Sequence record: NC_054927.1
Reading direction: 5' to 3' (one strand)
Source: Escherichia phage vB_EcoM_Ozark
DNA length: 64,000 nt
Part shown: piece after piece, positions 32,801-39,669 of the stretch
How the letters are laid out: every line of letters starts with the position of its first letter
Position numbering within the stretch: position 1 is the stretch's first letter
Notes under the pieces: model-generated
Told to the model about the DNA's origin: nothing
The model's database searches: none
The model's input: the letters and a program-made list of their open reading frames with translations, nothing else
Made by a program: the position numbers and the translations under genes

Positions 32801-33303
32801 TTAAAAATATTTTTTAAAACTCATCATAACTTTATCATCAACATCATTATCAATCTGTGCAACAAGGTAAGATGACAGTTCTACTTCTTGTGGCGCGGAT
32901 TGAACATTATCAGAATTAAGATATTCACGAATCCAAGGATATGGGTGTTTAACCGGAGCATCGGTAATTGGGCATGGAAGACCACACTGTTTCATACGAG
33001 ATACAGTTAAGTAATCAATAAAGCTCCACATGCTATTTGTATTTAATCCAGGAACATCGCCATCTTTAAATAAATGAACTGCCCAATCTTTTTCTTGGCG
33101 GTTAACTTCCATGAAAATATCAACTGCTTCTTGTTCACACTCTTGAGCAATTTTAACCCATTCATCGCCATCAGTGCCAAGTTGAAGTTGACGAATAATA
33201 TATTGGGTGCCCTTGAGGTGGAGCTGTTCATCACGAGCAATGAACTTCATAATCTTGGCATTACCTTCCATGATTTCCATGTTCTTATGGAAGTTAAAGG
33301 TAC
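32801..33303 (-). CDS. nrdB: Ribonucleotide reductase small subunit NrdB, exon 2
   Basis: Frame stays open upstream of MEIMEGNAK to ..CTFNFHKN, which aligns with the E. coli R2 FACSFAF region when joined to exon 1. Confidence 0.8.
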
Positions 33304-34394
33304 CGTTATGTTCGATTGAGCTCGCTAATTCTCAACCCGTTCTCTTATGAACTGCTACATATTACTATGCAGACCAGACTATATCACAATCCCAGAGGGA
33401 TTCTCCCCATTTCGAGTCGCTTGACCCTACGTCCGAAGACTAGTCGTTGAACCTTGCTTTGCAATTGTCGCCGTGCCATCGTTTATATGTTGATGGTGAT
33501 AAATCTTTCTTATCACAATATGGACAATTCAATTGAATTCTATTTGGATTTAATTTACATCTGTCATTATGTTTTAGATAAAATCCAGGACCTTTACCAA
33601 TGTGACCGCAGAAATCACATGTGATTTCTTTTTGTGCAGGATGGGTCCCGTTCTTAACCATTTCTAATGTTTTTGCTGATGTTCTTTTCTTATGGTCTTC
33701 TGACAAGAAATGATGTGAACCGTCATTTACCCGTTTTGATTGAGTTTCTGACTGCATTTTACCACCGCAAAATACATGAGTACCTTCTTTTATAGCTGCA
33801 ATATTGCGTTCTTTAACTTTTGCAATATGCTCAGCTTGTTGAAAATTATGTATACCTAATGCAACTCTATTTAAATTAGATTTACGTTGTATTTCACCAC
33901 CTAAAAGATGAAATGTACCATTTTCTATCTTAGATTTAATAGAGGCAATATTTTTAGCTCGTACTTCAGGGATATTAAAAACCTGGATTTCTCTAGATTT
34001 TGCGGCTTTAGAAGCTAATTCAGAAATTTCTTCAGGAGAATATTTCATTCTGAGCTTTATAGCATGACAAGCCTGGTAGTCTTTTTGAGCTAAATGTATA
34101 TCATAATGTTCCTGTATAGAAAGGCACATCAAATTATCTAAATCATTATTTTCACGGTTACCGTCTTTATGATGGATTTCGTATGTTCTTCCATCAGAAT
34201 CTTTAGGTATAGGTCCGTTAGCATCTATCCAAATTTTTCTATAGTTCAATTGTGCATCCTCTTAAAAGTATAATCATATTTATATTATACTAATTAAAGG
34301 TGCAAGCAAAACCTTGGCTGCTAGTTTTCCTATAAAGGACTTTCCAGCAATTAAAGGAGTTTTCGATAAACGTTACCGTTTAAAGGCGCATTTT
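33304..34394 (-). other. Group I intron in nrdB (about 1.09 kb) carrying an endonuclease ORF
   Basis: Exon 1 ends in U at GCGU; intron begins AAAAUGCGCC whose GCGC can pair with exon GCGU (P1 with U-G at splice site); proposed 3' end is a G. Confidence 0.75.
33440..34249 (-). CDS. I-TevIII: Intron-encoded HNH homing endonuclease, full-length I-TevIII-like
   Basis: 269 aa; HNH core EIHHKDGNRENNDLDNL; C-terminal Cys clusters CDFCGH and CPYCDKK; lies wholly inside the intron. Confidence 0.8.
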   Translation of the reverse strand: MNYRKIWIDANGPIPKDSDGRTYEIHHKDGNRENNDLDNLMCLSIQEHYDIHLAQKDYQACHAIKLRMKYSPEEISELASKAAKSREIQVFNIPEVRAKNIASIKSKIENGTFHLLGGEIQRKSNLNRVALGIHNFQQAEHIAKVKERNIAAIKEGTHVFCGGKMQSETQSKRVNDGSHHFLSEDHKKRTSAKTLEMVKNGTHPAQKEITCDFCGHIGKGPGFYLKHNDRCKLNPNRIQLNCPYCDKKDLSPSTYKRWHGDNCKARFND

Positions 34395-35070
34395 ACGCAA
34401 AAGATACATAAAAACGAATAGCTTCCAATGCGTTGATTACATGGAGGCAAAGGTAAAGAGATTTCATTAAAGCACGTTTAGCTTCGGCTTCTTGTTTAAT
34501 AGCTCGGTTTAAACGAAAGACGGCATCAGGAGATTCTTTAGCTAGTTCTACAAATTCTTTAGCATTTTCCCATTCACGAGTCTTAACTAGAACATCATCG
34601 TAATAGCGACCAATGGACTCGGCACGTTTCATAATAGCTTTATCTAATACAATCTCATCAAATACCTTTGACGGATCAGTATAAAGATTTCGCATAATAT
34701 GAGTGTATGAACGACTGTGAATAGTTTCACTAAAAGTCCATGTAGCAACCCATGTATCAAGACTTGGGTCTGAAATTAACGACATAAGTACAGCAGACGG
34801 TGCACGACCCTGAATGCTATCTAGAAGTGATTGATACTTCAGGTTATTAGTAAAAATATCTTGCTGATATTGAGGAAGCTTGTTAAATTGTGCAGCATCC
34901 ATCATCAAGTTTACTTCTTCAGGACGCCAGAAAAATGATAATTGCTTTTCGGTTAAATCTTCAAAAACTTTATGACGTTGAATATCATAACGCGCAATAC
35001 CAAGACCTGAACCAAAAAACATAGGTTCTTTTAAAACATCAACTGGATTTGTATTAAAAACTGTGCTCAT
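34395..35070 (-). CDS. nrdB: Ribonucleotide reductase small subunit NrdB, exon 1
   Basis: 225 codons ending ..LHVINALEAIRFYVSFA, the conserved R2 region; stop follows immediately in the intron. Confidence 0.85.
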
Positions 35071-35121
35071 AAATTTTCCGCTTAGTTAATAGTTGGTGAC
35101 TCGTCCATGAGTCAAATTATA

Positions 35122-37386
35122 TCATAATTTACAGGATGAACAATCTTCAGCTTTTGGAGTTTCTATTTCATAATCATCAGTACCGGAACCATCACGGGTA
35201 TTATGATAATAGAAATTTTTTCCGCCAAAATACCAGAAATACAAAAGGTCATCAATCATTATTGACATTGGAACTTTTCCTTTTGGAAAAATCTGTGGGT
35301 CATAATACGTATTCGCTGAAGCTGATTGACATACCCATTTCAGCATAATAGCTACCTGCGTAAGATAAGGTTTATTACCTTTCTTAGCTAATTTCCATGT
35401 ATAATCATATAGGTCTATGTTATGCTCAATATTGGGCACGACTTGATTAAAGGAACCCTCTTTTGATTCTTTAACAGAGACTGGTCCACGTGGAGGCTCG
35501 ATACCGTTTGTACTGTTAGAAACTTGGGAAGATGACTCACATGGCATAAGTGCTGATAATGTGCTATTACGGATGCCAAAGAGCTTAAGGTCTTCCCGCA
35601 GCGACGACCAGTCACAAACGTATTTTGGAGCTGCGATTTGGTCAATCTTTTTATTGTACCAGTCGATAGGTAATTCGCCTCGAGACCAACGAGTGTCTGA
35701 ATAATATTCGCAAGGTCCTTTTTCTTTGGCGAGCTTAATGGATGCTTTAATGAGTCCATACTGTAATCTCTCAAATAGTTCATGTGTTAAATCGTTAGCA
35801 TCTTCATAAGAAGCAAAGTTACTTGCCAGCCAAGCTGCATAGTTGGTAACACCTACACCGAGGTTACGACGCTTTTTAGCTTTTTCTGCTTCAGGAACTG
35901 GATATCCTTGATAATCCAAAAGATTATCAAGAGCACGAACTTGAACTTCTGCCAATTCATTAATTTTATCTTGGTCTTGCCAGTCAAAATTATCTAGTAC
36001 GAATGCAGAGAGAGTACACAATCCAATTTCAGCATCAGGACTGTTCACATCATTTGTTGGAATAGCAATTTCACAGCACAAGTTACTCTGACGAATAGGT
36101 GCCTTTTCACGAATAAACGGAGTATAGTTATTCGTATTATCAATGAACTGCACATAAATCCTTGCTGTTCCTGAACGTTCAGTCATGAGCAATTCAAATA
36201 GTTCACGGGCTTTAATACGCTTTTTACGAATATTAGGGTCTTTTTCTGCTGCTTCGTATAATTCACGGAAACGGTCTTGGTCTTTAAAATAAGAATAATA
36301 AAGCTCGCCACCCATTTCATGTGGACTGAACAAAGTAATGTAATCGTTCTTTCCGAATCGTTCCATCATCAAATCATTCAGTTGAACACCATAATCCATA
36401 TGACGAATGCGGTTTTCTTCTACGCCTTTGTTATTTTTCAAAACGAGAAGATTTTCAACTTCCAAATGCCAAATAGGATAATAAGCAGTAGCAGCGCCGC
36501 CACGAATTCCACCCTGTGAGCATGATTTAACAGCAGTTTGAAAATGTTTCCAAAAAGGAATAACACCGGTATGGCGTACTTCACCCATGCCAATCTTAGA
36601 ACCTTCGGCACGAATCATACCAACGTTAATACCAATTCCAGCGCGTTTAGAGATATATTCAACAATTGAAGCAGAAGCCTTATTGATAGACTTCAGCGAA
36701 TCACCTGCCTCAATAACAACACATGAACTAAACTGTCGAGTCGGAGTACGGCAACCAGCCATAATAGGAGTTGGCAATGAAATCTGTCGAGTAGATACTG
36801 CTTCATAAAAACGGATAACATGTTTTAGTCTATCAACAGGTTCATCTTGATGCAATGCCATTCCAATAGCCATAAATGCAAACTGCGGAGTTTCATAAAT
36901 TTGACCAGTGGTTTTATCTTTAACTAGATATTTTTCTTTTAATTGCATCGCCCCGGAATAAGTAAATTCCATATCCCGCTCGTGCTTAATTTTTGATTCT
37001 AAAAATGTAATTTCTTCCGCAGAATATTTTGACAATAATTCAGGGTCATATTTCCCTTCATTTACGCAATAAGAAATATGGTCAATAAATGAACGCGGTT
37101 CATACTGCCCGTAAACATGCTTACGAAGAGCAAACATTAAACAGCGTGCAGCTACATATTGATAATCAGGCTCTTCAACCGAAATAGAATTCGCAGCAGC
37201 CTTAATTACAATAGTTTGAATGTCATCAGTGGTCATTCCATCACGGAGATATGATTTAATATTTTCATATAATTCATAAGGATCTACAGATGTTCCTTCA
37301 GCTGCCCAAGATAAAACTTTAATAATTTTTTGTGGGTCAAAGCTCTGAGAAACACCACTACTTTTGATAACATTAATTAATTGCAT
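35122..37386 (-). CDS. nrdA: Ribonucleotide reductase large subunit NrdA
   Basis: 754 aa from ATG (MQLINVIKSSG); class Ia motifs and C-terminal CSSC; track ORF is over-extended upstream. Confidence 0.9.
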   Translation of the reverse strand: MQLINVIKSSGVSQSFDPQKIIKVLSWAAEGTSVDPYELYENIKSYLRDGMTTDDIQTIVIKAAANSISVEEPDYQYVAARCLMFALRKHVYGQYEPRSFIDHISYCVNEGKYDPELLSKYSAEEITFLESKIKHERDMEFTYSGAMQLKEKYLVKDKTTGQIYETPQFAFMAIGMALHQDEPVDRLKHVIRFYEAVSTRQISLPTPIMAGCRTPTRQFSSCVVIEAGDSLKSINKASASIVEYISKRAGIGINVGMIRAEGSKIGMGEVRHTGVIPFWKHFQTAVKSCSQGGIRGGAATAYYPIWHLEVENLLVLKNNKGVEENRIRHMDYGVQLNDLMMERFGKNDYITLFSPHEMGGELYYSYFKDQDRFRELYEAAEKDPNIRKKRIKARELFELLMTERSGTARIYVQFIDNTNNYTPFIREKAPIRQSNLCCEIAIPTNDVNSPDAEIGLCTLSAFVLDNFDWQDQDKINELAEVQVRALDNLLDYQGYPVPEAEKAKKRRNLGVGVTNYAAWLASNFASYEDANDLTHELFERLQYGLIKASIKLAKEKGPCEYYSDTRWSRGELPIDWYNKKIDQIAAPKYVCDWSSLREDLKLFGIRNSTLSALMPCESSSQVSNSTNGIEPPRGPVSVKESKEGSFNQVVPNIEHNIDLYDYTWKLAKKGNKPYLTQVAIMLKWVCQSASANTYYDPQIFPKGKVPMSIMIDDLLYFWYFGGKNFYYHNTRDGSGTDDYEIETPKAEDCSSCKL

Positions 37387-37441: not shown

Positions 37442-38173
37442 ATGAAATCTGGAATATATGCTATTATAAACACTAAAACCAATAAGCACTATATAGGAAG
37501 TGCAATTAATTTTGAAGAACGATGGAAACGACACTTTAAAGATTTAGATAATGGAAATCATCATTCAATAAAGCTGCAGCGTTCTTATAATAAGCATGGG
37601 AAAGATGCTTTCGTATGTAAAATCATAGAAGAACTTCCATACGAAAAATCTATCATTATTGAACGTGAAAATTATTGGATACATGAATATGACTCAAAGG
37701 AAAATGGGTATAATATAGCAGACGCATCGTTTGGGGATACCTTATCTCATCACCCAAGAAAGCAAGAAATCCTTAATAAAATTTCAAATGCAATTAAAAA
37801 TAATAATTCAAAATTATCACCAGAAGAACTTAAGCAAAAACATGGTAGACCTAAAGACATCAAAGGTAAAACTATAGAAGAACACTATGGGTTAGATCGT
37901 GCTATAGAAATAAGCAAAAAGTTCCAAGAAAGAAACGCTGCACTTAATATGAAAGGCATCAATAATCCATATTATGGACAGACACATACCAATGAAGTTA
38001 GAAAACGAATTTCTGACTCACAAAGAGGTAAAAAGAAACCCCATCTAAGAGTAAGTATAGATGGGGTAGAATATCCAACAATAGCAGAAGCTGTGCGTCA
38101 AACCGGAATAAGCAGAAAACTTATATCTAAAAGATGTGCTCTAGATTGTTGGGAATCATATTTATACTGCTAA
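37442..38173 (+). CDS. Free-standing GIY-YIG homing endonuclease, I-TevI-like catalytic domain
   Basis: 243 aa; N-terminal about 100 aa closely resemble remembered I-TevI ([36 protein letters not shown]); C-terminal region has NUMOD-like and HTH-like segments; only plus-strand gene in a 30-kb minus-strand block. Confidence 0.8.
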
Positions 38174-38407
38174 AGTTCTACATTCGTCATATTGTTTTTC
38201 CGTTAAAACAGTAATATCGTAGTAACAGTCAGAAGAAGTTTTAACTGTGGAAATTTTATTATCAAAATACTCACGAGTCATTTTATGAGTATAGTATTTT
38301 TTACCATAAATGGTAATAGGCTGTTCTGGTCCTGGAACTTCTAACTCGCTTGGGTTAGGAAGTGTAAAAAGAACAACGCCAGAAGTATCTTTAAATCGTA
38401 AAATCAT
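38162..38407 (-). CDS. Hypothetical protein immediately downstream of td
   Basis: 81-aa ORF whose ATG overlaps td stop (ATGA); its 3' end overlaps the convergent GIY-YIG gene by 12 nt. Confidence 0.5.
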
Positions 38408-39264
38408 ATTGCCATTTTCCCTTTAATTGCTGGATGCGATTCATAATTTTCAAGGATAAAATCTTTCGGTTTCATGTATTCAGTTAACCAGTAAAGCTGT
38501 GTTTCGGTGTCACAATTTCCAAACTCTATAGGCCAATCAATTTTAAGTTCACATAGTTCTTTAGGCTCACGACGTAAAATTTCTTTACATTGCTCAGTAT
38601 GATTCATATAGATGTGAGTATTACCACCAGAAAATATCAAATCTCCTGGGATAAGATTACACATCTTAGCCACAATATGCGTCAAGGCAGCGTACGAGGC
38701 AATGTTGAATGGCAATCCCAAGAAAACATCTACACTTCTTTGGTACCATTGTAAATCAAGATAACCATTACGCACATTAAACTGATAGAACATATGACAG
38801 GGCGGTAATGCCATTTGATTGATTTCAGCTGGATTCCATGCTGAAACGATTTGACGTCGATCAGTTGGTAATTTTTTAATACGATCAATAGTTTCAACTA
38901 ATTGATCCACACCACCGAAATCACGCCATTGTTTACCGTATATAGGACCAAGTTCACCACTATGATATCCTAGGTCTTTAGCCTGGTTTTCATAGTTATC
39001 GTCCCAAATAGTTTTACCTTGAATAAGACTACCATGAGTGCGAAGACGTAAATCATTAACATTGGTAGAACCGGAAATAAACCATAGAAGCTCAGCAATG
39101 CATGCATTCCAGGCGAGCTTCTTAGTTGTTACTGCAGGAAAACCTTTAGTTAAATCCCAGCGTAATTTAGTACCGAACAAAGCAATTGTTCCTGTGCCTG
39201 TTCGGTCATCGGTTTCATAGCCATTTTCAAAAATGTCTTTAATTAAATCTTGGTATTGTTTCAT
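38404..39264 (-). CDS. td: Thymidylate synthase, intronless
   Basis: Single continuous 286-aa ORF with ThyA motifs (active-site PPCH, DLGPIYG). Confidence 0.92.
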
Positions 39265-39309: not shown

Positions 39310-39669
39310 TCAATACGGTTTAGCATCAAATTTTCTCTCAATTTCAGGTGTGAAATATAATTCTTTACCGCGTTTGGAAAAGCGACCAATAATATGATAA
39401 TTATTCTCATCAAACGTGATATTACCAATATCCATAGCTTTCAACCAAATATCGATATTTCTATCCAGCTTTATGTCAAAATTCCAATACGGAGAACTAT
39501 TACCGAAAATACTACAAGCGGATTCAGTGAAACAGCTACTATAAATCTTGTCTTTAGGAACTACTAATTGATAAACACCTTTAATAAACTGAGGACCTTG
39601 CCATTTTGGCTGTTTCGCGTCTTTTTCTAATAGAATAGGGTAATAATTAAAATTCATATTTTCCGCCAT
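39310..39669 (-). CDS. Hypothetical 119-aa protein inserted between frd and td
   Basis: ATG-initiated ORF 8 nt after frd stop with no clear RBS; no recognisable motif. Confidence 0.5.
   Translation of the reverse strand: MAENMNFNYYPILLEKDAKQPKWQGPQFIKGVYQLVVPKDKIYSSCFTESACSIFGNSSPYWNFDIKLDRNIDIWLKAMDIGNITFDENNYHIIGRFSKRGKELYFTPEIERKFDAKPY

Follow-up and report, generated by a model that had tools for sequence, protein, structure and literature searches.

The introns in the nrdB genes of phages T4 and RB3 have been described as self-splicing (PMC2790892, PMC1865063), a property that PMC2790892, for the T4 version, credits by citation to Gott, Shub and Belfort. The mobility of the RB3 intron has been demonstrated, and its product, I-TevIII, is a dimer with endonuclease activity that drives homing and cuts the recipient at -14/-16 from the splice site (PMC1865063). 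In RB3 I-TevIII, H26, H27, N39 and H48, together with the cysteine pairs C211/C214 and C242/C245, have been mutated and their roles defined (Robbins et al. 2007, PMC1865063). The C-terminal zinc fingers are needed for DNA binding, and the dimerization interface lies in the same C-terminal ~75 residues (PMC1865063). The T4 intron is immobile by itself, its defective I-TevIII being mobilized in trans by mobE (PMC2790892). In phage intron endonuclease genes, the end of the ORF has been described as overlapping the ribozyme core, and late, hairpin-controlled expression has been described for the T4 intron endonucleases (PMC2988022). Finally, the inconsistent distribution of introns across the T-even phages is presented in PMC2988022, through its citation of Pedersen-Lane & Belfort 1987 and Quirk et al. 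1989, as established.

Against this background, we analyzed a stretch of 64,000 nucleotides from Escherichia phage vB_EcoM_Ozark (NC_054927.1), hereafter the window, whose numbering is used throughout. The ORF list and the sequence together reveal an nrdB gene on the minus strand that is interrupted, with two exons around a 1091-nt intron:

34395..35070, minus strand: nrdB exon 1 (676 nt, codons 1-225 and the first base of Cys226; ORF list and sequence)
33304..34394, minus strand: group I intron, subgroup IA-like (P7.1/P7.2), 1091 nt, starting AAAAUGCGCC, terminal G at 33304
32801..33303, minus strand: nrdB exon 2 (503 nt including the stop codon; frame ..FA-C-TFNFHKNMEIMEGNAK.. restored)

We are nearly certain that this element is an RB3-type nrdB group I intron of the T-even phages with an intact I-TevIII homing endonuclease gene. 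The assignment draws on the anatomy of the locus, its sequence identity to described elements, the intact functional residues of the endonuclease, a group I model match and a co-conversion-like haplotype in the upstream exon. A megablast search with the 1091-nt intron recovered 127 phage records, 83 of them covering at least 80% of the query, with E-values of 0. Full-length identity is 99.3-99.5% to the versions in RB3, RB5-RB10, e11/2, JK45, phiD1 and others, and the matches include X59078, a 1,464-bp RB3 nrdB record annotated with the I-TevIII CDS. Hence, the element is already known: it is a long-studied model mobile intron, present at 99% identity or more in dozens of sequenced Tequatrovirus genomes. 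Its recognition nevertheless has value for annotation, as many deposited genomes list two NrdB fragments and a "hypothetical protein" rather than a spliced nrdB and I-TevIII.

The exon-1 ORF (35070..34393) encodes the N-terminal 225 residues of a class Ia ribonucleotide reductase small subunit, ending ..ALEAIRFYVSFA, and then meets an in-frame TAA, which is composed of the last T of the exon end ...TTT GCG T and the first two A's of the intron. A second NrdB-like frame resumes at 33303 and ends at 32801. With the splice site marked by a slash, the 5' boundary on the minus strand reads ...TTT GCG T/AAAATGCGCC... and the 3' boundary ...CGAACATAACG/GT ACC TTT AAC..., the intron ending ...ATAACG. 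Joining the exons gives TTT GCG TGT ACC (F-A-C-T), where T and GT together form the Cys codon. Excision of 34394..33304 thus restores an NrdB frame of 392 aa, ..RFYVSFA-C-TFNFHKNMEIMEGNAK.., reading RFYVSFACTFNFHKNMEIMEGNAK, with 5 differences from the RB3 protein. The boundaries are fixed by the colinearity of intron-less alleles across the junction: exon 1 is colinear with both the RB3 nrdB exon 1 and the intron-less nrdB of IME339; the latter encodes an uninterrupted 392-aa NrdB with an identical peptide across the junction; and a 500-nt query spanning the spliced junction produced a single ungapped alignment to many natural intron-less nrdB genes (859 records matched). The original prediction had placed the intron at 33304-34394, with exon 1 ending ..RFYVSFA and exon 2 continuing in frame; its coordinates and boundary sequences prove exact.

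To delineate the ribozyme, a minimum free energy (MFE) fold was run on the window intron with the ORF loop swapped for a tetraloop, and this was combined with Rfam alignments, including that of an ORF-less derivative of the same intron from phage vB_vPM_PD112 (PD112). The fold recovers P1, P2, P3, P4, P5, P6/P6a, P7.1, P7.2, P8, P9, P9.1 and P9.2, placed as follows:

34386..34398, minus strand: P1, exon GCGU (34398..34395) pairing with the internal guide GCGC (intron 6-9, 34389..34386); sequence and MFE fold
34302..34381, minus strand: 5' ribozyme half; Rfam alignment of the identical PD112 sequence and MFE fold
34381..34368, minus strand: P2, with a GNRA loop
within 34361..34353, minus strand: P3 5' strand; Rfam alignment and MFE fold
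34349..34319, minus strand: P4/P5/P4'; Rfam alignment and MFE fold
34318..34302, minus strand: P6/P6a 5' strands; Rfam alignment and MFE fold
33316..33462, minus strand: 3' ribozyme half, with P6a'/P6' from 33462; Rfam alignments and MFE fold
33445..33441, minus strand: P7 5' strand GACUA, overlapping the ORF stop codon
33440..33431, minus strand: P7.1, GUC-UUCG-GAC; MFE fold, and an insertion here in the Rfam alignment
33427..33414, minus strand: P7.2, GGGUC-AAGC-GACUC; MFE fold, and an insertion here in the Rfam alignment
33408..33403, minus strand: P3'; Rfam alignments and MFE fold
33401..33389, minus strand: P8; Rfam alignments and MFE fold
33381..33377, minus strand: P7 3' strand UAGUC; consensus columns
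33370..33357, minus strand: P9; Rfam alignments and MFE fold
33352..33339, minus strand: P9.1; Rfam alignments and MFE fold
33335..33316, minus strand: P9.2; Rfam alignments and MFE fold

The P1 helix with a U-G pair at the splice site, which had been proposed from the sequence alone, is recovered by the fold as a U(-1).G6 wobble at the 5' splice site; it is short, at 4-5 bp, and P10 amounts to at best 2 bp. P7 is a pseudoknot whose strands are both free in the MFE fold, and it was assigned from their complementarity and the conserved GACUA/UAGUC consensus columns. The extra P7.1 and P7.2 helices between P7 and P3' are typical of subgroup IA, and the T4 record is annotated as 'group 1A'. As all copies are at least 99% identical in the ribozyme segments, they offer no compensatory changes that could be counted for covariation.

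The Rfam group I model (RF00028) has a gathering score of 50 bits, and a scan of the whole window at this threshold gave no match of any kind. A permissive scan returned RF00028 at 33.9 bits (E=1.3e-6), below the gathering score and covering only the 3' half/core of the intron; this shortfall arises because the 810-nt ORF insertion splits the core. We ran the T4 locus from 133000-145000, which contains both the td and nrdB introns, as a control, and it likewise gave no Rfam match at the gathering threshold; therefore, the silence on the window is a limitation of the tool. The PD112 derivative scores 68.6 bits against the same model (E=8.4e-17, model positions 1-253). Over intron positions 1-102 its 5' segment is identical to that of the window; over 1-148, where there is a 2-nt indel, the identity is 98.6%. 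Its 3' segment is 100% identical over intron positions 927-1091. On the strength of the T4 control and this ORF-less scan, we set aside the silence at the gathering level as evidence against an intron, and the covariance-model scores of the window core and of the ORF-less derivative bear out the group I assignment of the original prediction. More generally, scans that rely on the Rfam gathering score will overlook ORF-bearing phage group I introns, including those of T4 itself.

By analogy with the published T4 and RB3 work, from which splicing, cleavage and mobility in this phage are extrapolated, we advance the following plausible sequence of events. The intron would be transcribed within the nrdB pre-mRNA and fold into a group I ribozyme, which would then excise itself by a guanosine-initiated two-step transesterification. 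The ligated exons, with a junction expected to read ...UUUGCGU/GUACCUUU..., would encode a functional 392-aa NrdB.

The intron carries the following endonuclease gene and candidate expression signals:

33440..34249, minus strand: I-TevIII homing endonuclease gene (269 aa, 810-nt ORF, TTG start; N-terminal HNH, two CCHC zinc fingers)
34257..34284, minus strand: expression signals in the P6a loop; motif positions and a fold of intron 86-175
34263..34257, minus strand: Shine-Dalgarno AAGAGGA, 7 nt upstream of the TTG start
34284..34277, minus strand: T4 late-promoter-type box TATAAATA, by motif position, in the loop of the hairpin that pairs the Shine-Dalgarno

The ORF shares 266 of its 269 residues with RB3 I-TevIII, which is of the same length and has matching start and stop positions within the intron, and the TTG start is common to the window ORF and the RB3 gene annotation. 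Pfam HNH_3 matches residues 4-48 (E=6e-13), the zinc-finger motifs (CX2CX12-13HX3C) at residues 211-231 and 242-263 are both intact, and H26, H27, N39, H48, C211, C214, C242 and C245 are all present. A full-length HNH/zinc-finger protein of 269 aa had been predicted, as opposed to the truncated form of T4, and the alignment to I-TevIII substantiates this: the T4 intron lacks the positions 210-700 that are present here. The three substitutions relative to RB3 are D23Y, I90V and D117G. We considered D23Y as a potentially function-altering change beside the catalytic histidines and rejected it, since Tyr23 is the common state (also in e11/2, BGP and AV121) and the RB3 Asp is the outlier. I90V and D117G are absent from the four other copies compared, and neither falls within the HNH motif or a zinc finger. 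When the ORF was searched against the sequences of solved structures, nothing matched at E<=0.01. Pfam also placed FlgM on residues 74-117 (26.6 bits, cut-off 25); we gave no weight to this marginal hit, which falls on a helical, low-complexity linker.

The ORF occupies a loop extruded from P6a, and the ribozyme draws on its final ~25 nt, stop codon included, for P6a', P6' and the 5' strand of P7. Upstream of its start, the Shine-Dalgarno is predicted to be sequestered in a CCUUU/AAGAGG hairpin (fold of intron 86-175). The TATAAATA box and this hairpin fit the late, hairpin-controlled expression of the T4 intron endonucleases, from which we infer a comparable function in the window phage. Most I-TevIII translation probably relies on late transcripts initiated at this intron-internal box, since in longer ones the hairpin would sequester the ribosome-binding site.

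The upstream exon provides a further line of evidence, centered on a single tract:

34396..34426, minus strand: exon-1 tract with a recombination junction, -2 to -32 from the splice site; the cut sites -14/-16 fall inside it at 34408 and 34410

We compared the window with six intron-bearing alleles (RB3, e11/2, BGP, AV121, the PD112 mini-intron and T4) and two intron-less ones (IME339 and TB004). The six intron-bearing alleles have one synonymous haplotype in common, at -32, -35, -38, -41, -44, -47, -50, -52, -53 and -56. The window is instead of the intron-less type (IME339, TB004) at -32 to -47 and at -52/-53, and carries the intron-associated bases G at -2 and T at -5, where the intron-less alleles have A and C. 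The intron-less alleles thus have GCA where the window exon has GCG, and the -2 G of the window keeps this GCG complementary to the internal guide. The change from donor to recipient type therefore occurs between -5 and -32, an interval that includes the -14/-16 cut sites. Likewise, exon 1 is only 93.0-94.2% identical to those of RB3, e11/2, BGP and AV121, as against 99.3-99.5% for the intron; of the eight alleles compared, the intron-less IME339 has the most similar exon 1, at 95.7%. Such a switch point is the trace expected from a homing event with little upstream resection and fits acquisition by homing, although a short-tract haplotype could likewise result from ordinary homologous recombination between phages. 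We rejected the idea that the hybrid exon/intron junction is unique to the window phage, as WilhelmHis, 348Ecol098PP, AV119 and AV120 are 100% identical over 140 nt. Since these four other database phages share it, the haplotype records no event unique to the window genome. Intermediate exon haplotypes exist among the database phages, with the RB3 haplotype being the majority.

The surroundings of nrdB were compared with those in related phages. The td gene (39264..38404) is an uninterrupted 286-aa ORF that is 99.2% identical over 861 nt to the colinear, intron-less td of BGP, which upholds the earlier remark that the td intron is missing. Its alignment to the AV121 td breaks at nucleotides 548/553, the AV121 gene being interrupted by ~1 kb with an annotated homing-endonuclease gene. 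The nrdA-nrdB spacer (35071..35121) has only 51 nt and is devoid of mobE (found in T4 and RB3), of the 247-aa replacement of BGP and of nrdB.1. The window phage hence has a full-length I-TevIII intron without the free-standing endonuclease that mobilizes the defective copy of T4. Across relatives, the mobile elements are combined as follows:

RB3: nrdB intron present; mobE between nrdA and nrdB
e11/2: nrdB intron present; td intron present, with a remnant I-TevI; mobE inside nrdA
BGP: nrdB intron present; td intron absent; 247-aa gene between nrdA and nrdB
AV121: nrdB intron present; td intron present, with a homing-endonuclease gene; no mobE
TB004: nrdB intron absent; GIY-YIG gene of the window present
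RPN226: nrdB intron absent; td intron present; GIY-YIG gene of the window present

We put forward tentatively, granting it slightly less than even credence, that the window nrdB allele may preserve the footprint of natural homing driven by I-TevIII alone, mobE being absent. The upstream co-conversion tract is very short, at between 5 and 31 nt, and carries the synonymous -2 G and -5 T, which make the exon compatible with P1 pairing. If this proposal is true, the several tract lengths among phages could constitute a natural record of how far repair tracts reach from the -14/-16 cut, and the alleles could show whether intron-less sites with -2A/-5C partly resist homing. The exon haplotypes may form a small natural dataset on I-TevIII co-conversion tract length in a mobE-free background, which is the sole mildly new angle of this locus.

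Of the competing accounts, one holds that an endonuclease cassette has truly split the gene into two separately translated, assembling polypeptides, with no RNA splicing. Such split polypeptides have been reported for some phage nrd genes. Here, exon 1 does end in an in-frame TAA, exon 2 offers an in-frame ATG (MEIMEGNAK...) 8 codons from its start, several genome annotations give two NrdB CDSs, and the nrdA annotations of e11/2 and RPN226 consist of two CDSs with an HNH gene between them. However, the insertion splits a codon (T/GT) and brings a full group I ribozyme that is identical to that of RB3 outside the ORF and matches RF00028; a 304-nt ORF-less version at the same site is inexplicable by a split at the protein level; and the conserved residues CTFNFHKN would drop out of both halves. 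Together with the published description of the T4 and RB3 nrdB introns as self-splicing, these observations render a protein-level split vanishingly improbable.

If nrdB is instead spliced, as we hold, the intron might still be an immobile passenger like that of T4, with I-TevIII inactive or unexpressed and its presence due to vertical descent or to hitch-hiking on recombination initiated by neighboring free-standing endonucleases. The T4 precedent of a defective I-TevIII mobilized by mobE, the I90V and D117G changes unseen in four other I-TevIII copies, the weak TTG start and a GIY-YIG endonuclease gene ~3 kb away all speak for this. Against it, the full-length ORF keeps all the catalytic and zinc-binding residues that were defined by mutation, the active RB3 gene has the same TTG start, mobE is absent from the window, and the interval in which exon 1 changes haplotype spans the I-TevIII cut sites and not some remote position. 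We accordingly regard an inert passenger as unlikely, and the description of the intron as 'active-looking' seems reasonable, in so far as it is read from the intact residues (PMC1865063) and the co-conversion signature of exon 1. The original prediction went further in taking the full-length nrdB intron and the missing td intron as marks of a distinct T-even lineage. It is true that td is uninterrupted, that the nrdB intron is of the long form and that coverage of the 10-kb neighborhood by any one database genome stays at or below 92%. Nevertheless, close relatives combine the nrdB intron, the td intron, mobE and the GIY-YIG gene variously: an intron at least 99% identical is found in phages with the td intron (AV121, e11/2) and without it (BGP), and with mobE (RB3) and without it (AV121). 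Moreover, phages whose exon 1 sequences diverge by 6-8% carry introns that are 99.4% identical. With an intron so much more conserved than exon 1 (99.4% against 92-94%) and such varied combinations, these elements move laterally and define no lineages, in keeping with the patchy T-even distribution that PMC2988022, citing Pedersen-Lane & Belfort 1987 and Quirk et al. 1989, treats as settled. The claim of a distinct lineage is therefore quite improbable, and we do not retain it.

Other endonuclease-related features of the neighborhood deserve mention in their own right. A free-standing GIY-YIG endonuclease gene lies between nrdA and td on the opposite strand, where T4 and RB3 have nrdA.1, alongside two small ORFs:

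37442..38173, plus strand: GIY-YIG endonuclease gene (243 aa)
38162..38407, minus strand: 81-aa DUF5496 protein (Pfam E=8e-54), directly downstream of td and, by position, the nrdA.2 counterpart; the 3' end of the gene overlaps the convergent GIY-YIG gene by 12 nt
39310..39669, minus strand: 119-aa ORF, flanked by frd and td and unmatched in Pfam; a hypothetical protein is annotated in the corresponding place in BGP and AV121

The GIY-YIG protein matches the Pfam domains GIY-YIG (E=1e-15) and NUMOD3, with a weak match to the I-TevI DNA-binding domain. Along its whole length it shares 46% identity with T4 I-TevI (E=9e-72), and it has no cysteines at the position of the I-TevI zinc finger. Both 7 Escherichia/Shigella phages (99%) and 18 Klebsiella phage records (90-92%) have the gene at this same position, and td or nrdA are the obvious candidates for its target. 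As the Klebsiella matches are labelled 'thymidylate synthase', we considered whether it might be an I-TevI-type ORF escaped from a td intron; this was rejected because in KP179 the gene stands free at the same position and merely abuts td, and in RPN226 it coexists with a td intron. In e11/2 (L004 3105..6273) and RPN226 (L011 1777..4945), the two nrdA CDSs flank an HNH (MobE-like) gene, representing an endonuclease insertion in nrdA, and the nrdA of the window (37386..35122) is intact.

Set beside the known systems, the window intron is closest to that of RB3 (Eddy & Gold 1991, Genes Dev 5:1032; X59078, KM606994), with which it shares the host gene, the insertion site and the 1091-nt length. 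The two are 99.4% identical, and, because all 7 nucleotide differences fall inside the ORF, their ribozyme segments are the same. They differ in context: RB3 has mobE between nrdA and nrdB, which the window does not, and its exon-1 haplotype at -32 to -56 is distinct from that of the window. The T4 nrdB intron (598 nt) shares the insertion site and the ribozyme, with 7 substitutions over 598 aligned positions, and the 3' end of its ORF overlaps the core as in the window. In contrast, it lacks intron positions 210-700 (491 nt) as well as two single bases, leaving an out-of-frame remnant ORF of 97 aa that is without the HNH domain and is annotated as a defective endonuclease in the T4 record. 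A still more reduced state is seen in PD112 and vB_EcoM_CE1, whose nrdB mini-introns of 304 nt are ORF-less, occupy the insertion site of the window and retain identical ribozyme segments. They correspond to a 785-nt deletion exactly between two direct repeats, both present in the window:

34247..34253 and 33462..33468, minus strand: ACAATTG direct repeats flanking the I-TevIII ORF, one overlapping the TTG start, the second where P6a' begins

In the PD112 record, no intron is marked and nrdB appears as two distinct CDSs. Beyond nrdB, the T4 td intron with I-TevI and the nrdD intron with I-TevII are also phage introns of subgroup IA in genes of nucleotide metabolism; they too loop a homing endonuclease ORF out of the ribozyme and have late or hairpin-controlled expression (PMC2988022). 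The endonucleases themselves are of different families, with I-TevI and I-TevII being monomers of the GIY-YIG family, whereas I-TevIII is a dimer of the HNH family (PMC1865063).
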